The notes below the pieces were generated by a model. It ran no database searches and was not told where the DNA came from. It saw only the letters and a program-made list of their open reading frames with translations. A stretch of DNA of 64,000 bases, taken from the NCBI RefSeq assembly GCF_013294015.1, contig NZ_JABSNO010000003.1, forward strand, positions 78,746-142,745. Reading direction: 5' to 3'. The first letter of the stretch is position 1, and each line of letters begins with the position of its first letter. The translations under genes and the position numbers were made by a program. Positions 26,190-42,450 of the stretch are shown here, piece by piece. The stretch is from Frigoriflavimonas asaccharolytica. Lineage in GTDB: Bacteria; Bacteroidota; Bacteroidia; Flavobacteriales; Weeksellaceae.

Positions 26190-28979
26190 TCAAATTAACT
26201 TCTCCGCAATATACTTCGCTGTTTTAGATATTTTATTTTTTGCTAAATTTTCTGGCGTACCTTCAAATACGATTACGCCACCATGTTTACCGGCTTCTGG
26301 ACCGAGATCTATCACCCAATCTGCAGATTTTATAATGTCTGGTTGATGCTCAATTACGATTACAGAATGTCCTAATTCTATTAAAGCATTGAAGGAAATT
26401 AGCAACTTTTTGATATCATGAAAATGCAAACCAGTGGAAGGTTCGTCGAAAATAAATAAGACTTTTTCTGCCGTTTTTCCTTTCACCAAAAATGAGGCAA
26501 GTTTCACACGTTGCGCTTCTCCACCAGAAAGTGTGGAAGAACTTTGTCCTAGTTGCAGATAGCCCAAACCAACATCTTGCAAAGGTTGCAATTTCGTGGC
26601 TATTTTATTTTGTTTATTATCATTAAAAAACTCGATAGATTCGTCTACCGTCATGTGCAAAATATCCGAAATATTCTTTTCGTCATATTTAACTTCTAAA
26701 ATTTCTTTTTTGAAACGCGCACCTTTGCAAACTTCGCATTCCAATTCTATATCTGCCATAAATTGCATTGCAACCGTGATAACGCCTTCTCCTTTGCACT
26801 CATCACATCTTCCACCATCTACATTGAAGGAGAAATGTTTGGTTTTGTAGCCCATCATCACAGATAATTTTTGCTTGGCATACAATTCTCGAATATCGTC
26901 GTAGGCTTTCAAATAGGTAACAGGATTGGATCTGGAAGATTTCCCAATAGGATTTTGATCTATTAATTCTATATTTCTCACCAAATTTAATGGAAATTCT
27001 ACAGAATCATAATCCATTTTTTTGCCACCCATTCCCAATTGAATTTGCACTTCTCGGGTCAGAACTTCTTTCATTAAGGTAGATTTTCCACTACCAGAAA
27101 CGCCCGAAATTACAACCAAACATTCCAAAGGAATATTTACATCTACATTTTTAAGATTATTTTCTCTCGCACCTTTTATTTTAATAAATTCTTTGGCTTT
27201 CCTTCTCTTCGTGGGAATTTCTAATTCTAATTTTCCAGTGAGATAGTCGGAGGTTAATGTATTTGCGTTTTTCAATTCATCATAAACTCCAGCAAAAACC
27301 AATTCGCCACCTAAATATCCAGCTTCCGGACCAATATCTATAATGTAATCTGCAGCTTTCATCATATCTTCATCATGTTCTACAACGATGACGGTGTTTC
27401 CAAGATCTCGCAGATTTTTTAAAACTTGGATGAGGTTTTCTGTATCGCGAGAATGCAAACCGATGGAAGGCTCATCAAGAATATAAATACTCCCAACCAA
27501 AGAACTTCCGAGAGATGTTGCTAAATTTATCCGCTGACTTTCCCCACCAGAAAGGGTATTTGACGTTCTGTTGATGCTCAAGTATCCTAGACCAACTTTC
27601 ATCAAGAATTCTAATCTTGTGATGATTTCGTAGAGCAATCTTTTGGCAATTTCTGCATCATGATCCGTTAAATTTAAACCTTTCATCAATGGTAAAAGCT
27701 CGTCCAAAGGCAATTCTACGGTAGATTGTATGTTGTGGCCATCAATTTTTACCCAAGAAGATTCTTCTCGCAAACGCAAACCATCACAGCTATAGCATTT
27801 GGTTTTGCCACGAAATCTGGAAAGCATTACACGGTATTGGATTTTGTATAAATTTTCTTCTACCATTTTGAAGAAATTATCTATAGAAGGAAAATCTTTC
27901 TTGCCATCTCCTTTCCACAAATAGTTTTTTTGCTCTTTAGATAATTCAAAATAGGGTTTGTGTATCGGGAAATCTTTTGCAGCTTTGATGAATTTTCTTT
28001 TCCATTCACTCATAGAGTCGCCTTTCCAAGCGGTAACTGCATCTTCAAAAACGGATAGATTTTTATTTGTAATTACTAAATCTTCATCAATACCAATCAC
28101 TTTTCCGTAGCCTTCGCAAGTTGGGCAAGCTCCTAAAGGATTATTAAAACTGAATAAATGTACGGTTGGTTCTAAAAATTCTTTGCCGTCTAATTCAAAT
28201 TTGTTAGAAAATTCTCGTATTTCATTAGTCTCCATGTTTTTTAGAGAGCAATATCCATGACCTTCGTAGAATGCCATTTGTATAGAATCTGCTAATCTTT
28301 GCTGAAAACTTTCATCTTCTTCATAGTTAAATCTATCGATGACCAGATGAATTTCCATATCTTTTTCTGGCACAAATCCAAAACTTTCTAAATCTTCTAT
28401 TCCGGCTACATTTCCATTTACTTCCAATCTTGTGAAACCTAGCAATTTTAAAGATTTTAAACTTTCTTCAAATTTTTCTGTTTCAAAGACTAAAGGCGTT
28501 CTTAATAAAAAAGAAACATCTTTTCCTGCTTTTTTGATGAAATCCATTACATCAGAAACGGAATCTTTCTTCACTTCCTCGCCAGAAATTGGGGAAAATG
28601 TGTGGCCGATTCTCGCAAAGAGTAACTTCATATAATCGTAGATTTCTGTAGAAGTTCCTACGGTAGAGCGAGGGTTGCTAGAAATAACCTTTTGCTGAAT
28701 AGCGATAGATGGAGCCAAACCCTTGATATCGTCGATTTTCGGTTTTTCTAATTTTCCAAGAAATTGGCGTGCATAAGAACTCAAACTTTCTACGTATCTG
28801 CGTTGTCCTTCTGCATAAATAGTATCAAAAGCGAGGGAAGATTTTCCGCTGCCAGAAACACCTGTGATCACGATTAATTTATTTTTCGGAATAAGTACAT
28901 CTATATTTTTTAAATTATTTAGATGCGCATTTTTTACGAAAAGTTGAGTTTTTATATTGATATTTTCTAGTGTAACCAT
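26190..28979 (-). CDS. uvrA: excinuclease ABC subunit A
   Basis: 929 aa with two ABC ATPase modules (GVSGSGKSSLAFDTIYAEGQRRYVESLS...; second GVSGSGKSTL) and zinc-finger Cys clusters. Confidence 0.9.
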   Translation of the reverse strand: MVTLENINIKTQLFVKNAHLNNLKNIDVLIPKNKLIVITGVSGSGKSSLAFDTIYAEGQRRYVESLSSYARQFLGKLEKPKIDDIKGLAPSIAIQQKVISSNPRSTVGTSTEIYDYMKLLFARIGHTFSPISGEEVKKDSVSDVMDFIKKAGKDVSFLLRTPLVFETEKFEESLKSLKLLGFTRLEVNGNVAGIEDLESFGFVPEKDMEIHLVIDRFNYEEDESFQQRLADSIQMAFYEGHGYCSLKNMETNEIREFSNKFELDGKEFLEPTVHLFSFNNPLGACPTCEGYGKVIGIDEDLVITNKNLSVFEDAVTAWKGDSMSEWKRKFIKAAKDFPIHKPYFELSKEQKNYLWKGDGKKDFPSIDNFFKMVEENLYKIQYRVMLSRFRGKTKCYSCDGLRLREESSWVKIDGHNIQSTVELPLDELLPLMKGLNLTDHDAEIAKRLLYEIITRLEFLMKVGLGYLSINRTSNTLSGGESQRINLATSLGSSLVGSIYILDEPSIGLHSRDTENLIQVLKNLRDLGNTVIVVEHDEDMMKAADYIIDIGPEAGYLGGELVFAGVYDELKNANTLTSDYLTGKLELEIPTKRRKAKEFIKIKGARENNLKNVDVNIPLECLVVISGVSGSGKSTLMKEVLTREVQIQLGMGGKKMDYDSVEFPLNLVRNIELIDQNPIGKSSRSNPVTYLKAYDDIRELYAKQKLSVMMGYKTKHFSFNVDGGRCDECKGEGVITVAMQFMADIELECEVCKGARFKKEILEVKYDEKNISDILHMTVDESIEFFNDNKQNKIATKLQPLQDVGLGYLQLGQSSSTLSGGEAQRVKLASFLVKGKTAEKVLFIFDEPSTGLHFHDIKKLLISFNALIELGHSVIVIEHQPDIIKSADWVIDLGPEAGKHGGVIVFEGTPENLAKNKISKTAKYIAEKLI

Positions 28980-34992: not shown

Positions 34993-35496
34993 TTGAATAA
35001 ATATTTTATGAATACCTTTAATAAAAAAATCATGAAAAATAAAACTGTTTTCCAATTTATTTCAGAACCAAGCGACGTAAACTACGGTGGGAATGTGCAT
35101 GGCGGAAGTGTGATGAAATGGATAGACCAAGCAGGATATGCTTGCGCAAGTAGTTGGTCTTCTAGTTATTGTGTAACCGTTTATGTAGGCGGAATCAGGT
35201 TTTATTCTCCCATAAAAATAGGACACTTGGTGAAAGTGGAAGCGGAAGTAATTTATACGGGAGAAACAAGTATGCAGATAAGCATCAATGTATTTTCTAG
35301 AAACATAAAACACAAAATTTTTGAAAAGAAAACGCATTGCATCATCGTTTTTGTTGCGGTAGACGACGAAGGAAAATCCGTTTCTGTGCCCAAGTTTTTT
35401 CCGAAATCTAAAAAAGACAAAAAGATGGAAAAATATGCAATAAAATTAATGAAATTGAGAAAAAATATTGAAGAAGAAATGAAACCGTTTTTGTAG
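34993..35496 (+). CDS. acyl-CoA thioesterase (hotdog fold, YciA-like)
   Basis: NYGGNVHGG motif; the true start is probably the internal Met at MKNKTVFQF. Confidence 0.7.
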   Translation: MNKYFMNTFNKKIMKNKTVFQFISEPSDVNYGGNVHGGSVMKWIDQAGYACASSWSSSYCVTVYVGGIRFYSPIKIGHLVKVEAEVIYTGETSMQISINVFSRNIKHKIFEKKTHCIIVFVAVDDEGKSVSVPKFFPKSKKDKKMEKYAIKLMKLRKNIEEEMKPFL

Positions 35497-35660
35497 ATAA
35501 TTTACTGTTTAATATCCTTTACAACAGTTCGTATTGCAATTTTACTTTTTTAGAAATACGGTGTTTTTTATTGCCTCGTTCTTCTCAAGATTTGCAAATT
35601 GACCAGTGAAATTCTTATGGAATTGTTTAATTTTTGATTTTGCAAAATTAAAATTAGCAG

Positions 35661-37136
35661 TTAAAGTCCATTCAAAAACTCTTCCGCATTTTTATAATGT
35701 GCACTACGTTTCTCCTCATCCATTTTAGTAAAAGTATGGTACATCATACCAACTCTCGGATTTCCTTTGAAAAAATCTTGATTTTCACCAACAAACCTCC
35801 AAAATAATCCGTCCCAAATTTTGTCCCAATCTCCAGAAGGGTAGTTGCTCATTTTTTTGATGTAATTAGAACCGCTTAAATACGGTTTGGTAGCGAAAGT
35901 TCCACCATCTGCAAATTGGCTCATTCCGTAGATATTGGGAACCATCACCCAATCATAAGCATCAATAAATAATTCCATAAACCACTGGTACACTTCATCT
36001 GGATCTATTTCGCAAAGCAACATGAAATTTCCCAAAACCATTAATCTTTCGATATGATGACAATATCCGGTTTTCAAAACTTTTTTTATCGTCTCATCAA
36101 TTGCTGGAATTCCCGTAGTTCCATCATAAAAACTTTTTGGCATTTTTCTCTTGAAACCAAAGAAATTTTTATTTCTAGAAAATACGCCTTTTGCCAAATA
36201 CATTCCGTGAATAAACTCGCGCCAACCTATAATTTGACGAATAAAACCTTCCAAAGAATTGAGTGGAATTTCGTTCTTCTTTGCAAAATTTAAGGTTCGT
36301 TCAACAACTTGCATTGGCGTAAGTAAACCTGCATTCATCAACGGAGAAAGCAAACTATGGTTAAGAAAATGTTCTTTTTCTACTATCGCATCTTCATAAA
36401 TACCAAAATCGTGGAAACGAAAATCTAAAAACTGCTCCAACCAATTTTCTGCTTCTTCATGTGTTGCTGGATAATATGAATTTTCTGAAATTTCGCCTAA
36501 ACTTTGAGCAAAATTATTTTGAACATAAAGTACTGCTTCCTTCCAATACGCAGATTTTTCTGGAAAATCTATGCTTGGTGGAATTTTATTTTTCGGATAT
36601 TTCTTGCGATTATCTGCATCATACGTCCATTTTCCACCTTCGGGATTTCCGTTTTCGTCAATTAATATATTTAAACGAATTCTTTCTTCTTTATAAAATG
36701 AAGTTTGGAAATAGGATTTTTTATTGGGATCAAAAAATTTTTGCAAATCTTTGAGATTATTGATGAAATAAGGAGTTTCTAAAATATTTAGTTGAATGTT
36801 TTCCGAAACTTTTGCCAATCTTTTTTCCAAATTAAAATCTGCAGGATAAAGCACATTTATTTCTGTAATATTTTTAGAATCTATTTCTTTATTAAATTTT
36901 CTAATATCAGAGCATTCAGTTTCACTTTCTATATAATGTACTTTTGCTCCTTTTTCTTCTAAATATTTTTGATAATATTTCATAGAAGCACGATGAAAAG
37001 CCAACTTTTGTTTATGAAATTTGTATTGTTGGAAAAATAAATATTCTTCTACCAAATAAAAATCGCCTTTATTTTCTAGTAAAGGATTATCTGCAATCAA
37101 CTGATGCGGAAAAACTATATTGATTATTTTAGACAT
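35661..37136 (-). CDS. cryptochrome/photolyase-family protein (COG3046-like photolyase-related protein)
   Basis: 491 aa with a GWREF motif and C-terminal aromatic-rich FAD-pocket-like segment (WDKIWDGLFWRF). Lacks the 4-Cys FeS-BCP signature. Confidence 0.55.
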   Translation of the reverse strand: MSKIINIVFPHQLIADNPLLENKGDFYLVEEYLFFQQYKFHKQKLAFHRASMKYYQKYLEEKGAKVHYIESETECSDIRKFNKEIDSKNITEINVLYPADFNLEKRLAKVSENIQLNILETPYFINNLKDLQKFFDPNKKSYFQTSFYKEERIRLNILIDENGNPEGGKWTYDADNRKKYPKNKIPPSIDFPEKSAYWKEAVLYVQNNFAQSLGEISENSYYPATHEEAENWLEQFLDFRFHDFGIYEDAIVEKEHFLNHSLLSPLMNAGLLTPMQVVERTLNFAKKNEIPLNSLEGFIRQIIGWREFIHGMYLAKGVFSRNKNFFGFKRKMPKSFYDGTTGIPAIDETIKKVLKTGYCHHIERLMVLGNFMLLCEIDPDEVYQWFMELFIDAYDWVMVPNIYGMSQFADGGTFATKPYLSGSNYIKKMSNYPSGDWDKIWDGLFWRFVGENQDFFKGNPRVGMMYHTFTKMDEEKRSAHYKNAEEFLNGL

Positions 37137-37139
37137 ATT

Positions 37140-37268
37140 TTATTTATTTCTACGGCATTTTTCACTGCAATATTTCACTTCTTCCCAATTTTTCTCCCAT
37201 TTTTTTCTCCAAGAAAAAGGAAGTTTACAGACTGGGCAAATTTTTGTGGGCAAATCAGATTTTTTCAT
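37140..37268 (-). CDS. DUF2256-like small zinc-ribbon protein (42 aa), not in ORF track
   Basis: Manual translation gives [46 protein letters not shown]...CSEKC arrangement and WRKKW motif typical of DUF2256. Its ATG overlaps the upstream gene stop as ATGA. It ends 3 bp before the next gene's start. Confidence 0.65.
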
Positions 37269-37894
37269 TCAAACTCTGGTATTTCCGACGTTCTTACGTA
37301 TGGAAAAGTGTCTAATTTGGATAAACTATAATAAGAATTTAAACCTGAAATTCCTGCAGATTTAGATTTTTGTAAATCTATTTGTCCTAAATTATTCACC
37401 AAATCATCTGCTAAAATTAATTGCTCCACATTACCAATAATAAATTTGCAATCGTTTGGTAAATCTATAATGCTAGATAATTTCATTCCAATTTTAATGG
37501 GACTTTCTTTTACAAATGGTGCGAAAAAATCTTCTACATATTCTTTTTCAATGTTCATTCTATCAAATTCAGATTCTTCCGAACCTAATTTTGCAGAAGT
37601 ATAATGCGCTTTTTTTATTAAATTTTCTGGAATGTGGTTGATGCTGTACCTTTCCGTGGATTTAATATTTTTAAAAGTATCGCTTTCTTTTTCTACTTGC
37701 GGTCTCAAAACGAACGCCAATTGTGCAGGATGAGAACCCAAATGTACAACGGAAGAAATAACGGCAACATTTTCTACACCTTCTTCAGATTTTGTTGCTA
37801 TTAAGTTGGCAGGTTTTATTCCGGTGATGGAATTGATGAGATTTAATCTGTATTTACGTTCCAGATTTTCTATTTTTGATTTTTTTAAATTCAT
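37265..37894 (-). CDS. flavin reductase-like (FMN-binding split-barrel) family protein
   Basis: 209 aa, pattern consistent with flavin reductase-like domain proteins; lies within the photolyase-related cluster. Confidence 0.55.
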
Positions 37895-37913
37895 AAATTG
37901 TAATTTTTAACAA

Positions 37914-37990
37914 CTCTCGCAGATTTTTCAAATTTTGCAGATTTTTGTATAAAAATAAATAATCTGCATCATTAGCAAAATCTGCGAGAG
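37914..37990. promoter_or_regulatory. nested inverted repeat (GCAGATTTTT units) in an intergenic spacer of the photolyase-related cluster
   Basis: Outer arms ctctcgcagatttt (37914-37927) and aaaatctgcgagag (37977-37990). Inner arms ttgcagattttt and aatctgca. Confidence 0.4.
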
Positions 37991-38000
37991 AAAGATCTTT

Positions 38001-38957
38001 TTAATTTTCAAATTCTTTTTGCAACACTTTTTTAATTTTTTTCCAGAAATTAAAAAATGAAGGAAAATCGCCGTAAATATTGGTCAATGTCTCTCTTTCT
38101 TCTTTAATTCCCAAATAATGAGCATTGGTTGGATGTTCTTTATAAATAATATTTTCTTTTGAAATAATTTTATTTAAATCAGAAAATTCACTAATAATAA
38201 TTTTTATATTAGGAATATTTTCGGATAAATTTAGAGCAAAATCTAGACATTTTTCTGATACGGGAAATTGCTTAAAATGGGAAGTTTCTAATAATAATAT
38301 TCTTTGAAAATTGTCTTCTAAATGCCAATTGAAATCTAAATTGTAGTAATTGTAAACTAGAGTTTTTTCATTATTAAGGATAGGATTTTCTATTTTTGGA
38401 AGCATTGTTTGCAAATTCAAAACCTCTACATCTTTTAAAATTTCGGGAATTTGTAAATCAGGTAATGTAGAATAATCAACATCCATGAAAGTATCTTTCT
38501 GATTACCTTCAAAATATTTATTAAAATTTTCTTGATTTGCAAAATATTTTTTGCTAGAAAAACTTCCAGCAACCCATTGCCAACTTAAATGATTGCTTGC
38601 CAAATCTCCATCTAGCAAATTATAATACAACCATTTTGCAGGATTGAACCAGTGAGAATGTGCAATATTACAAGTGATAGAAGCAATGTACATCCGCAAA
38701 TGGTTGTGAATATATCCGCTTGTATAAAGTTCAGAAATGCCTTTGTCTATAATATTTATCCCAGTATTTCCTACAAAAATTGCCTTTGGAATTTCCCAAT
38801 TTTCTACATTTTCTTGCATTTTCTTTAAATCTGAAAATATCAAATCTTGTTTTGCTTTGTAAACTTCTTGAAAAAAATCTCTCCAAGCCAATTCTTGCAC
38901 TAATCTTTCTACCTCAAACCATTGCAAATTTAAAGTTTTCAAATGCTCAAAAACCAT
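38001..38957 (-). CDS. photolyase/cryptochrome FAD-binding-domain-like protein, atypical (lacks N-terminal alpha/beta domain)
   Basis: The first ~140 aa carry WRDFF, TGINIIDKG...HNHLRMY and LLDGDLASNHLSWQWVAGS motifs. In canonical photolyases these lie in the C-terminal third. About 170 further residues follow with no clear motif. Confidence 0.6.
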   Translation of the reverse strand: MVFEHLKTLNLQWFEVERLVQELAWRDFFQEVYKAKQDLIFSDLKKMQENVENWEIPKAIFVGNTGINIIDKGISELYTSGYIHNHLRMYIASITCNIAHSHWFNPAKWLYYNLLDGDLASNHLSWQWVAGSFSSKKYFANQENFNKYFEGNQKDTFMDVDYSTLPDLQIPEILKDVEVLNLQTMLPKIENPILNNEKTLVYNYYNLDFNWHLEDNFQRILLLETSHFKQFPVSEKCLDFALNLSENIPNIKIIISEFSDLNKIISKENIIYKEHPTNAHYLGIKEERETLTNIYGDFPSFFNFWKKIKKVLQKEFEN

Positions 38958-39097
38958 TTTTGTAGATATTGCACCACGAGAAATGTACGGGCTTAAATGC
39001 GTGACAGCACCATTTCCAAAATTTCTAGTGGAAGAATATTTTACAGGATTTATCTCAGAAATCCTTGTTTTTATCGCTGATATGGAAGTTGGGAAGT

Positions 39098-39367
39098 CTA
39101 TCGCTTTGAAATTTTATTGTTGGAAATTGCATTCTGCCGAGAACATTTGAAGCGAGAAATATCATCGCTTCGTTTTTTGAGGTGTTTTTTGCTAACACCA
39201 GAATTCACTCGTTTTCGCCATAATTTGAAAGAACTTTCTTTCAATTCGGTGCGCATTAGTTGAATAACATCTGCTTCTGCAAAGCCAAATTGGAATTTTA
39301 TGGCTTCAAAAGGCGTTCTATCTTCCCATGCCATTTCTATGATTCTATCTGTTTGTCTGTCTGTCAT
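39098..39367 (-). CDS. DUF2132/TIGR03643-like small protein
   Basis: IIEMAWEDRTPFEAIKFQFG motif, which I recall as characteristic of the DUF2132 family. Basic C-terminal tail. Confidence 0.5.
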   Translation of the reverse strand: MTDRQTDRIIEMAWEDRTPFEAIKFQFGFAEADVIQLMRTELKESSFKLWRKRVNSGVSKKHLKKRSDDISRFKCSRQNAISNNKISKR

Positions 39368-39450
39368 GCTGTTAGGTTCAAAATTTAAAATTCAATGGTT
39401 TAAAGTTTTTAAGAATTAAATCTTAATCAATTATCATTTTTCATTTATAT

Positions 39451-40215
39451 TTAAAGTTTCTCTGTCAAATATTTCCAATATCTTTTTGGTACGTGTTGGT
39501 AGTGTAATTTCAAGTTTTTTCGTTCGGGTATATTTGTTTTAAAAAAGTAGCGTTGCCACAACTTTTGGTATCTTTTTTCTTCATCATGCAGCAATTCATC
39601 TATCTTTTGAAACTGATATATTTGGTCAGATTCTGGATTAAAAAATTCCATTGTTTTCAAATCGTAAAAAACGCCGTAGTGTCTTTTCAAATCGTAAATC
39701 ATCCACTTTTGGTCTTGATATCGATCTTTAAAGTGCTTCACAATTAAGGGTAAAACATTAAAATCTGGTTCAATCTTCGCAAAATAAACATCATCTTTCA
39801 ATTTTTCAAACCGTACAAAAGCGTGCATTCTGTGGATTTCTCTATTGACGGATTTATTTATTTTTGCAATTTCCAAAATTTCATCGTCGCTGTAATTTAA
39901 TAAAACATCAACAGTAGGATTTTTAATTGATTTTTTTACGGCATTTAAAACTAAAAATTCTACATCTTTTCTTTCGGATAAATATACTTTCAGCAATTTT
40001 GAAACTCCAGTTTTACCGATATTTTTTTCTAATTTTTTTAAAACTCTATCTGATTTTTCAATAGAAGTTAGCACTTCATGAAGATTTGAAAACATGTTTT
40101 CACTCAAATAATTTTCTTTAGCAATTATTTCTGCTGGCTCATATTTATATTCAAAAACCTCGAATATTGCGGTAAATAAGCCTTCAAAACTGCCATCATA
40201 GAGTAGAGTAGTCAT
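39451..40215 (-). CDS. TIGR03915/DUF4130-like probable DNA metabolism protein (partner of radical SAM TIGR03916)
   Basis: 254 aa; abuts the upstream radical-SAM gene with no gap. N-terminal MTTLLYDGSFEGLFTAIFEVFE pattern resembles this family. Confidence 0.5.
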   Translation of the reverse strand: MTTLLYDGSFEGLFTAIFEVFEYKYEPAEIIAKENYLSENMFSNLHEVLTSIEKSDRVLKKLEKNIGKTGVSKLLKVYLSERKDVEFLVLNAVKKSIKNPTVDVLLNYSDDEILEIAKINKSVNREIHRMHAFVRFEKLKDDVYFAKIEPDFNVLPLIVKHFKDRYQDQKWMIYDLKRHYGVFYDLKTMEFFNPESDQIYQFQKIDELLHDEEKRYQKLWQRYFFKTNIPERKNLKLHYQHVPKRYWKYLTEKL

Positions 40216-41472
40216 TTAAAATAAACTAAGTTGCTCTGAAAAAGGGTTCTGAAATTTCGATTTCATACTATTCATTATAATTTTTTTAAAATTTTGCTCC
40301 TCAATATATTTGTTGAAAATATTTGGATTGTCAAATTCAACAAAATATTTTGCTCTATTTAAAGCAACGCCCATTTTCTTTAAATTTTCTAAAGTCAGTT
40401 TTTGAAAACGTCTTGCATTAATGATTTTATTCACCGATTTTCCGCCAATTCCTGGAATTCTCATCAGCATTCCTTTGGATGCAGTATTTACGTTGATAGG
40501 AAATTGCTCGCGATGACGCAAAGCCCAAGCCAATTTTGGATCTACTTCTAGGTCTAAAAATGGATTTTCTTTCTCCAAAATTTCATGTGCTTTAAAACCA
40601 TAAAAACGCATCAACCAATCTGCTTGGTACAATCTATTTTCTCGCAGCATTGGAACTTGAGAATCTATGGAAGGCAATCTCGCATCCGTCAACATTGGCA
40701 CGTAGCCAGAATAATAAACTCTTTTTAGATTGAAATTTTGATAAAAATGATCTGCAACTTTTATAATTTTTAAATCGGTTTCGTCTGTTGCTCCCACAAT
40801 CATTTGGGTAGATTGTCCGGCAGGTGCAAATTTTGGAACTTTTCTAAAGATTTTTTTCTCTTCTTTGTACAATGCCAATTCATTTTTTACAAAACCCATT
40901 GGTTTGATCATCTCGGAATGAGATTTTTCTGGTGCTAATAATTTTAAACCTTTTTCTGTAGGAATTTCTATATTGATAGAAAGTCTATCTGCATAAAGTC
41001 CTGCTTCTTTCATGATTTCATCACTTGCGCCAGGAATGGATTTTAAGTGAATATATCCGTTAAAATTATGCTCTAAACGTAATTTTTTTGCTACCCGAAC
41101 CAAACGTTCCATGGTGGTATCTGAATCTTTGAAGATCCCAGAACTTAAAAATAAACCTTCAATATAATTTCTACGGTAGAAATTCATCGTCAAATCTACC
41201 ACCTCTTCTACAGTGAAGGCTGCACGTTTGATATCGTTTGTTTTGCGGGAAACGCAGTAGGCACAATCATAGATGCAATGATTGGTTAAAAGAATTTTTA
41301 AAAGTGAAACGCATCGTCCATCTTCAGTGTACGAATGGCAAATACCGGAAGCATGACTGTTTCCTAAGCCGCCGTTGTTTTTACGATTTCCACCACTAGA
41401 AGAGCAAGAAACATCGTATTTTGCTGCATCTGCGAGGATTTCTAATTTTTCTTTTATGCGTTCTAAATTCAT
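40216..41472 (-). CDS. putative DNA modification/repair radical SAM protein (TIGR03916-like) with C-terminal HhH
   Basis: CIYDCAYC CxxxCxxC radical-SAM cluster motif. C-terminal helix-hairpin-helix (MLMRIPGIGGKSVNKIINAR). Confidence 0.75.
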   Translation of the reverse strand: MNLERIKEKLEILADAAKYDVSCSSSGGNRKNNGGLGNSHASGICHSYTEDGRCVSLLKILLTNHCIYDCAYCVSRKTNDIKRAAFTVEEVVDLTMNFYRRNYIEGLFLSSGIFKDSDTTMERLVRVAKKLRLEHNFNGYIHLKSIPGASDEIMKEAGLYADRLSINIEIPTEKGLKLLAPEKSHSEMIKPMGFVKNELALYKEEKKIFRKVPKFAPAGQSTQMIVGATDETDLKIIKVADHFYQNFNLKRVYYSGYVPMLTDARLPSIDSQVPMLRENRLYQADWLMRFYGFKAHEILEKENPFLDLEVDPKLAWALRHREQFPINVNTASKGMLMRIPGIGGKSVNKIINARRFQKLTLENLKKMGVALNRAKYFVEFDNPNIFNKYIEEQNFKKIIMNSMKSKFQNPFSEQLSLF

Positions 41473-41503
41473 TAATTTATTAAAATTTAATGATGTAAAA
41501 ATA

Positions 41504-41511
41504 CAAAAATA
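41504..41511 (-). promoter_or_regulatory. candidate -7 promoter element (TAnnTTTG) for the radical-SAM/photolyase-related operon
   Basis: Minus-strand tatttttg about 32 bp upstream of the ATG at 41472. Confidence 0.25.
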
Positions 41512-41586
41512 AAGTAAGAAAACATTCTAAAATTAACTTATTTGAATTTATTTATACCTTTATTGATTTAGAGCAATCGTTTATTG

Positions 41587-42450
41587 TTATTTCCTAATCC
41601 ATTTTAGAATTTCGGGAAGTATAATTTTTTCACGTTTTTCTTTACTGAAAAATCTAGGGACATGACCCGTTTTCATCATATAAATTAGTTTGTGATCTAC
41701 CTTATGTAAAAATAATACGGAATCTAAAGCAAGACCTTGTTTTCTATTTACAAGCAAATCTTGATCTCCTTGAAATAAAAGTGTTGGCACATTTGAAACT
41801 TGATAAATTGGACTTGCTATTTTAAAGCTTTCAGGAATTTTTTTTCTATTAAATTTTTCACCAACAACATCTTGAATTGTTGGCAACGCGTATCTAGAGT
41901 AGGTGGTAGCTAGAAATTGAGGTGTATAAAAATCAGTAGGTCCGCTTAGAGATATGATTTTCGAAATTAATTGGGGATTTTGATACCCATACAAAAGCGC
42001 TAAATGTGCGCCCGCACTCTCTCCTAAAATAATGAAATTGTCTTCTGGTAAAAGTGTTTTTGTAGAAAACTCGTTAAATTTTTTGATGGCAGATTCTATA
42101 TCCTCTAGTTGATCTTTGTAGGTAATTCCCTTTCTCACGAGTCTATAATTGATATTAATTGTAGGAATATTTTTGCTGTGCAAATAATTCTGAATCATAA
42201 TCATTTTTTGTTTTCTACCTCTTTTCCAAGCGCCACCATGCACAATAACGACTGCAGATCTATCTCTTTCGAAATATGCTGGTAAGAAAACATCCATATT
42301 TTGTTTTTTTTCTTCGCCGTATTTTAAATTATAAATTTTTTGCTCATTATTTTCTCCTACCCAGATTTTGTATTGAGAAGTACAAGATTGCAGTGCAAAG
42401 GATAACAAACCGAGAAACCAAAATATATAATTGAAGAATAATTTTTTCAT
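41587..42450 (-). CDS. alpha/beta hydrolase (esterase/lipase-like), secreted
   Basis: HGGAW oxyanion-hole motif and GESAGAH nucleophile elbow. Signal peptide. Confidence 0.7.
   Translation of the reverse strand: MKKLFFNYIFWFLGLLSFALQSCTSQYKIWVGENNEQKIYNLKYGEEKKQNMDVFLPAYFERDRSAVVIVHGGAWKRGRKQKMIMIQNYLHSKNIPTININYRLVRKGITYKDQLEDIESAIKKFNEFSTKTLLPEDNFIILGESAGAHLALLYGYQNPQLISKIISLSGPTDFYTPQFLATTYSRYALPTIQDVVGEKFNRKKIPESFKIASPIYQVSNVPTLLFQGDQDLLVNRKQGLALDSVLFLHKVDHKLIYMMKTGHVPRFFSKEKREKIILPEILKWIRK

Follow-up and report, generated by a model that had tools for sequence, protein, structure and literature searches.

What does a 42-aa zinc-ribbon-type protein do among photolyase genes, and is its place there more than an accident of one genome? 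The question is raised by a locus of the flavobacterium Frigoriflavimonas asaccharolytica, which we analyzed within a 64,000-nt stretch of contig NZ_JABSNO010000003.1 (hereafter the window). The domain concerned, DUF2256, is among the most frequent domains in bacterial proteins of 50 aa or fewer (PMC11796252) and is placed by Pfam in the TRASH clan (PMC4047054). In the literature that we searched there is no experiment on any DUF2256 protein, and no function is given where the domain is named; a transcriptome paper on blue light in V. cholerae contains nothing on DUF2256. A linkage between DUF2256 and photolyases is likewise not mentioned in the literature searched; databases or subscription papers may already note it. 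The gene itself is an ordinary, annotated member of a known family, and what is new here is the conserved embedding of DUF2256 in photolyase-gene clusters.

Results

A DUF2256 gene is packed between a flavin-reductase-like gene and a photolyase homolog

An earlier note on this DNA had claimed a 42-aa open reading frame, unannotated and translationally coupled between two cluster genes. We found the frame to be present, with a translation identical to the one quoted, and to lie on the minus strand, which that note did not name (Table 1). Direct reading of the plus strand gives TCAT at 37265-37268, which is ATGA in the mRNA, and the ATG of DUF2256 (37268-37266) does overlap the TGA (37267-37265) of the 209-aa Flavin_Reduct frame. 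At the other end, the TAA of DUF2256 (37142-37140) is followed by AAT and then by the ATG (37136-37134) of the 491-aa DPRP frame, the 3-nt spacer that had been described. The word "unannotated" is right for the 60-aa ORF track that the earlier note worked from and wrong for the public record, in which RefSeq WP_173778154.1 and GenBank MFC6267539.1 name this exact protein as a "DUF2256 domain-containing protein"; assembly GCA_042659185.1 also has the identical 42-aa sequence as a gene call, with PF10013. From the spacing of the genes, DUF2256 is possibly coupled translationally with its neighbors. A scan of 35300-41800 for sigma-70 promoters and intrinsic terminators, ill-suited to Bacteroidota promoters, gave counts equal to those in shuffled sequence.

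Of note, DUF2256 and the downstream photolyase gene share a reading frame, with TAA-AAT between them (37134-37268, minus strand), and read-through of a single stop would fuse the two. This looks incidental because the junctions estimated in other loci (-17, -8, -7, -2, +1) are not multiples of three.

Table 1 Features of the cluster around the DUF2256 gene, in coordinates of the window
Feature	Coordinates	Strand	Description
Photolyase-related gene	35661..37136	minus	491 aa, DPRP + FAD_binding_7; begins 3 nt past the DUF2256 stop
DUF2256 gene	37140..37268	minus	42 aa; Cys4 (C11, C14, C34, C38), zinc-ribbon-type; WRKKW motif; net charge +8
Flavin-reductase-like gene	37265..37894	minus	209 aa, PF01613; TGA overlaps the DUF2256 ATG
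Nested hairpin	37912..37992		outer stem of 14 perfectly paired bp, CTCTCGCAGATTTT; lies in the 106-nt spacer that separates the SPL gene from the FlavRed-DUF2256-DPRP unit
Short photolyase-like (SPL/NewPHL-type) gene	38001..39101	minus	N-terminal FAD_binding_7; without alpha/beta domain
DUF2805/TIGR03643 gene	39098..39367	minus	89 aa; recurrent in photolyase clusters
DUF4130/TIGR03915 gene	39451-40215	minus	paired with TIGR03916; annotated as putative DNA repair/modification
Radical-SAM TIGR03916 gene	40216-41472	minus	paired with TIGR03915 at the cluster's upstream end; putative DNA repair/modification gene by annotation

The DUF2256 frame is under purifying selection, as expected of a translated gene

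Membership in DUF2256, which had been proposed from the CxxC...CxxxC and WRKKW features, was borne out when the profile check was run: the protein matches PF10013 with 80.8 bits against a cut-off of 25 (E 7.6e-23), residues 2-41 aligning to profile positions 1-40 of 40, and both features are invariant columns of an alignment of 26 diverse sequences (A1). No NCBIfam model matches the 42-aa protein. Fourteen columns of A1 are invariant (L5, P6, K8, C10, C13, W19, R20, K21, K22, W23, W27, C33, S34, and C37), in a numbering that omits the first Met, so that C10, C13, C33, and C37 there are C11, C14, C34, and C38 of the 42-aa protein. The segment W-R-K-K-W-x3-W between the knuckles is present in the window protein as WRKKWEKNW, and the strict motif occurs in 80 of 83 loci. 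Set beside the Pfam description of PF10013 ("Uncharacterized protein conserved in bacteria", TRASH clan), the window protein is a typical member in size, in its four Cys, and in WRKKW, with no differences.

The family is large and is made of stand-alone small proteins. Among about 5.8 billion clustered proteins we found 705 matches of 74-93% identity in Bacteroidota, Cyanobacteria, Alpha- and Gammaproteobacteria, and Verrucomicrobia, and the majority of these proteins bear the name "DUF2256 domain-containing protein"; an exhaustive HMMER search of 1.84 billion 50%-identity representatives yielded 2,424 DUF2256 clusters. Among the best 150 of these 2,424 representatives, almost all are single-domain proteins of 43-126 aa, and a Rosetta-stone search of the same 150 found no fusion of DUF2256 to a photolyase. 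The medians over 232 family members are 52.5 aa for length and +10 for net charge. The top hit, P0121 (3,179 aa), was rejected as a false positive consisting of 38 near-identical C2H2-like repeats (CPLC...HxxQVH). Tandem duplications of the DUF2256 module within single proteins are rare, as in P0122 (120 aa) and P0123 (92 aa).

We compared the 33 core codons among 79 species and found 0.226, 0.143, and 0.505 differences per site at codon positions 1, 2, and 3, respectively; counted from the window gene, the codon differences in the 79 species were 916 synonymous and 597 non-synonymous. The codon-position pattern, together with the synonymous excess, marks the DUF2256 frame as being under purifying selection, as expected of a translated gene. 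A chance frame that is not a gene might be suspected, given only 42 codons in AT-rich DNA and longer opposite-strand frames that overlap them (37104-37331 and 37120-37365). Against this stand the Pfam match, the amino acid identity across phyla with mostly synonymous change, the exact fit between the flanking genes, and the public gene call, and we give a chance frame practically no credence. The earlier argument from tight packing that this is a real gene is thus upheld by the Pfam E value, the 705 homologs, and the excess of third-codon-position substitutions, and we conclude with great confidence that the 42 codons are a genuine DUF2256 gene, one probably co-transcribed with its neighbors.

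The neighboring cluster holds two proteins of the photolyase superfamily

The whole cluster lies on the minus strand and reads, in order, radical-SAM gene (rSAM), DUF4130, DUF2805, FAD_binding_7-only gene, 106-nt spacer, Flavin_Reduct, DUF2256, and DPRP + FAD_binding_7. The protein directly downstream of DUF2256 scores 180 bits with PF04244 and 37 bits with PF03441 in Pfam, and it matches solved bacterial (6-4) photolyases with E values of 3e-81 (7ykn) and 6e-79 (4dja/PhrB) down to 1e-71, the matches also including 8ijy, 9hnk, and 3zxs/CryB. Aligned to the [4Fe-4S] cysteines (C, C, C, and C) of PhrB and Vc(6-4) are A, P, a gap, and K. Judged by its sequence, the protein is a homolog of PhrB, Vc(6-4), and CryB and, because all four of the cysteines that hold their [4Fe-4S] cluster are missing, not an FeS-BCP in the strict sense. 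All 18 such photolyase proteins in the loci ascertained through DUF2256 are likewise without the four cysteines. Subgroup M of the prokaryotic 6-4 photolyases is without the cluster cysteines and without an intact electron-transfer chain (PMC9178010), and the window homolog, being cysteine-less too, fits that type.

The second protein of the superfamily contains FAD_binding_7 only, at residues 20-154 of its 318-aa form, and the DNA_photolyase domain is absent, which matches the domain definition of the short photolyase-like (SPL) or NewPHL class (PMC8476157, PMC7736829). Xu et al. (2021, PMC8476157) noted a Bacteroidetes species in which SPL and FeS-BCP genes are predicted to share an operon, and the window resembles the Bacteroidetes photolyase clusters (Cyclobacterium marinum, PMC8476157) in that it too has an SPL-type gene and a prokaryotic 6-4 homolog on one strand. 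A small zinc-ribbon gene, a flavin-reductase-like gene, and DUF2805 are not mentioned in PMC8476157, PMC7736829, or PMC9178010.

Three further observations concern the architecture of the cluster. In the SPL gene, about 48-51 conserved in-frame codons, including THLSPYISRGAIS, lie upstream of the first ATG (38957), at 38958-39101 of the minus strand, and there is no ATG, GTG, or TTG among them. The ATA at 39101-39099 of this frame overlaps the TAG stop (39100-39098) of DUF2805 (ATAG) and aligns with the ATG start of the orthologs in loci L054 and L017, which read TAA-ATG there. Halpernia humi (locus L002, 6049-6064) has the same ATAG junction and no in-frame start at the ATG of the window, and its gene is called from ATA. 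The alignments suggest a conserved non-canonical ATA start, or termination-reinitiation, for the SPL gene in Frigoriflavimonas and Halpernia, and they also suggest that the public 318-aa call is N-terminally truncated, leaving out about 48 conserved residues that include the LSPY motif. At the upstream end, the TIGR03916/TIGR03915 pair (39451-41472, minus; 3721-5745 in L002) was found directly upstream of the photolyase cluster in just two of 83 loci, L001 and L002, both Weeksellaceae-type. Within the spacer, the nested hairpin spans about 80 nt with an inner 8-bp stem (MFE -33 kcal/mol, z -6.5) and has no T-run after it; the 14-mer of its outer stem, CTCTCGCAGATTTT, has a related copy with 1 mismatch at 27405-27418 (+), and Halpernia has a different, unrelated inverted repeat at the same spacer position. 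This hairpin may act in processing or attenuation, serve as an operator, or represent a REP-like element; a search of 35000-42000 against Rfam gave only sub-threshold, meaningless matches of miRNA precursors to the intergenic hairpin.

DUF2256 loci are linked to photolyase genes of several classes

We surveyed DUF2256 loci with a one-genome-per-species scan, which found at least 589 of them; 80 from many phyla were kept, and the counts below are over 82 species-level loci. When all ORFs within 3 kb were clustered without supervision, the photolyase/cryptochrome superfamily was the top neighbor cluster by a wide margin, occurring in 44 of the 82 loci, and 81 of the 82 superfamily members in those loci were on the strand of DUF2256. 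In 40 of the 82 loci, no more than 150 nt separated DUF2256 from the nearest photolyase-family gene, which was on its strand and was a cysteine-less DPRP in 12, a CCCC-type (FeS) DPRP in 11, a Cry-DASH in 10 (six members scanned, all above the TIGR02765 cut-off), an SPL in 4, and another full-length type (~500 aa) in 3. With the normal 1-4 photolyase-family copies per genome, the chance that one falls within a few kb of a random gene would be well below 1%, by a rough estimate from typical gene counts.

The linked loci span Bacteroidota, Balneolaeota, Alpha-, Beta-, and Gammaproteobacteria, Verrucomicrobia, and Chloroflexi. DUF2256 is upstream of the photolyase in Bacteroidota and downstream of it in Acidiferrobacterales, Glaciecola, Pseudomonas aestiva, Phenylobacterium, and a Caulobacterales MAG, and since both gene orders occur, the linkage survives rearrangement. 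A flavin-reductase-like gene is near DUF2256 in 13-15 of the loci ascertained in this way. In 38 of the 82 loci there is no photolyase-family gene within 6 kb. We conclude that the linkage of DUF2256 to photolyase genes is non-random and strong but not obligatory.

Other contexts recur by lineage. In cyanobacteria DUF2256 is directly upstream of an Asparaginase_2 gene (8 loci, including L003 and L062; also in Calothrix); in sphingomonads and Erythrobacter it lies between the genes for M17 leucyl aminopeptidase and HolC (DNA polymerase III chi), with NDK further downstream (L028, L045, L047, L067, L072, L076); and in some flavobacteria it follows an SDR+DUF2867 gene. We additionally observed that a further class of the photolyase superfamily, of ~490-540 aa with DNA_photolyase and FAD_binding_7 and the N-terminus VWLKRDLRLxDH, recurs near DUF2256 (L027, L031, L032, L036, L041, L048, L054, L055, L057, L063, L064, L073, L079, L080). 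The one member scanned (L080) was below every NCBIfam photolyase/cryptochrome cut-off, and the class may be the NewCRY-type group mentioned in PMC7736829.

Photolyase orthologs return to DUF2256 in about half of their loci

The survey above was ascertained through DUF2256. In the reverse ASCERTAINMENT, we started from orthologs of the window photolyase (49-66% identity) in metagenome contigs, of which 73 loci had enough upstream flank. A DUF2256 ORF lay within 3 kb in 39 of the 73 (53%). It abutted the photolyase gene upstream in 22, where the junction was estimated at -32 to +58 nt and mostly at -17 to +1; lay ~1.25-1.33 kb upstream, separated by one gene (DASH), in 11; was downstream in 5; and was on the other strand in 1. 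In the other 34 of the 73, this 3-kb range contained no DUF2256. FlavRed>DUF2256>DPRP, the exact triplet of the window, was found in 13 of 80 photolyase-ascertained loci. Halpernia humi has the gene order of the window unchanged (rSAM, DUF4130, DUF2805, SPL, FlavRed, DUF2256, DPRP), and with the 22 abutting loci and the 13 triplets this confirms conservation at the same position in related genomes, a check that the earlier note had named. DUF2256 is an optional member of the cluster and not a fixed partner.

The nearest characterized folds are small zinc fingers, below significance

An AlphaFold2 model of the DUF2256 protein (pLDDT 86.8) has a beta-hairpin knuckle and a C-terminal helix. This topology, together with membership in the TRASH clan (PMC4047054), indicates that the protein probably binds zinc through its four Cys. 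Searches of PDB sequences with the protein and with the profile gave noise-level matches only, among them the C-terminal zinc ribbon of Thermus uL24 (E 0.02-0.07); for rubredoxin, the only match was likewise at noise level (1rb9, E 1.1), with no stretch passing.

The top Foldseek hits were YacG bound to gyrase (4tma, prob 0.77, TM 0.56) and an FCS finger. YacG (PF03884, 1lv3, 4tma), a zinc-finger gyrase inhibitor, resembles DUF2256 in being bacterial, small, and free-standing and in having four Cys within CPxC and (F/Y)CSx(K/R)C knuckles. Membership in the YacG family was rejected, the Pfam score being 13 bits against a threshold of 25.5 (E 0.084). An hhalign comparison of the two families gave a probability of 41% over 29 columns, covering YacG residues 6-34 of 65; the rest of YacG has no counterpart in DUF2256, which ends a few residues after its last Cys. 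That remainder reportedly carries, from structure work on 4tma, the tail that contacts GyrB. Conversely, the WRKKW/Trp stripe of DUF2256 is absent from YacG, and the genomic context differs too. The FCS and MYND zinc fingers (FCS finger of L3MBTL2, 2w0t; MYND, 2dan) belong to the same Pfam clan and share the pattern C-x2-C ... (F/Y)-C-S-x2-C, and by Foldseek they resemble DUF2256 in its knuckle-plus-helix topology; however, they are eukaryotic domains within large proteins, whereas DUF2256 is free-standing, bacterial, and has its own invariant basic/aromatic motif, and the E values (0.5-2.6) are not significant. The similarity of DUF2256 to characterized zinc fingers is below significance in both fold and sequence.

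Discussion

Weighing an accessory role in photoreactivation against its alternatives

We propose that DUF2256 would be expressed as the middle cistron of a three-gene unit, between the flavin-reductase-like protein and the cysteine-less homolog of prokaryotic 6-4 photolyases, and that in F. asaccharolytica this unit would belong to the larger same-strand cluster of light-dependent DNA-repair genes. Its product would be a strongly basic Cys4 mini-protein of the knuckle-plus-helix kind, most probably zinc-binding, whose invariant W-R-K-K-W-x3-W face and basic tail would bind nucleic acid, namely UV-distorted or single-stranded DNA. DUF2256 would then assist photoreactivation as an accessory factor that the cell can dispense with, co-produced with the photolyases that happen to share its cluster in a given genome. 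Taken as a whole, up to and including the functional tie to photoreactivation, we hold this account to be evenly balanced between right and wrong. The tie itself, to photoreactivation or the light-UV response, is a little better placed, and we consider it somewhat probable from the linkage.

How DUF2256 would act is more tentative. Nucleic-acid binding is favored because the partner classes are evolutionarily distinct and have UV-damaged DNA as their common denominator, and because the protein combines a high positive charge with an aromatic/basic invariant motif. Cry-DASH and NewPHL have been reported to be active on single-stranded DNA. The window photolyase is only 40-76% identical even to its subgroup-M orthologs, whereas DUF2256 is 74-93% identical across phyla; with several photolyase classes involved and DUF2256 so much more conserved, we infer that a shared invariant ligand such as DNA is likelier than one protein partner. 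The three Trp may instead form the hydrophobic core of a tiny fold and not a face that contacts DNA. Overall, we regard action through DNA binding as conceivable and on the doubtful side. Still more doubtful, and best read as rather unlikely, is the broadest form of the proposal, that DUF2256 is a widespread accessory factor whose zinc ribbon recognizes UV-distorted or single-stranded DNA, or hands DNA to photolyases, and which has been recruited repeatedly beside 6-4, Cry-DASH, and short photolyases.

The foremost alternative is that DUF2256 is a general housekeeping mini-protein associated with nucleic acid or the ribosome, which in some lineages is carried along with photolyase clusters, or is under common regulation by light but takes no part in repair. 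Its extreme conservation across phyla is typical of partners of universal machinery, about half of its loci are in other contexts (asparaginase, pepA-holC, SpoU methylase), ribosomal protein L24e is in the same Pfam clan (PMC4047054), and the best sequence echo in the PDB is the uL24 zinc ribbon at E 0.02. That last match is not significant, however, and same-strand abutment in about 50% of loci to a family of 1-4 copies per genome is far above random, and the linkage holds up in several phyla even where gene order and photolyase class have changed; we therefore judge the housekeeping reading unlikely. We rate lower, as improbable, a protein-binding regulator like YacG, whose knuckle would dock on a photolyase or on a conserved DNA enzyme such as gyrase and block or tune the way that enzyme binds DNA, for instance in darkness or while repair is under way. 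The Foldseek hits to gyrase-bound YacG and the FCS finger, the hhalign pairing of the two knuckles, the Pfam E value of 0.084, and the common clan all point that way, but every one of these scores is below significance or the family cut-off (13 against 25.5 bits), the alignment stops at residue 34 of the 65 of YacG, the WRKKW segment has no YacG counterpart, and five photolyase classes argue against one co-evolving protein interface.

The position of the window gene, between a Flavin_Reduct gene and a photolyase homolog without the four cluster cysteines, invites another explanation, in which DUF2256 is a rubredoxin-like Fe(Cys)4 mediator that passes electrons from the flavin-reductase-like protein to the FAD of the photolyase and so compensates for the missing [4Fe-4S] cluster and electron-transfer chain. 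The triplet does recur (13 of 80 loci), and subgroup M lacks both the cysteines and an intact chain (PMC9178010). Yet DUF2256 abuts the CCCC FeS-type about as often as the cysteine-less type (11 and 12 loci), it abuts DASH and SPL genes as well, and a flavin reductase is mostly not nearby. The rubredoxin match is noise (E 1.1), CxxC...CxxxC with an FCS-like third knuckle is a zinc-binding TRASH/FCS pattern, and a charge of +10 suits nucleic-acid binding better than electron shuttling. We consider such a mediator very improbable. The equal abutment to the CCCC type also led us to reject, as a main reading, a role for DUF2256 as donor in trans of the four cysteines that the cysteine-less photolyase lacks.

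Significance

From the linkage follows a hypothesis that is concrete, cheap, and testable: DUF2256 would take part in light-dependent UV repair. The linkage also highlights other recurrent members of these clusters, the flavin-reductase-like protein, DUF2805/TIGR03643, and SDR+DUF2867, which are not discussed in PMC8476157, PMC7736829, or PMC9178010. If true, the reading of DUF2256 as an accessory factor would assign a role to a DUF that ranks among the most frequent in small bacterial proteins.
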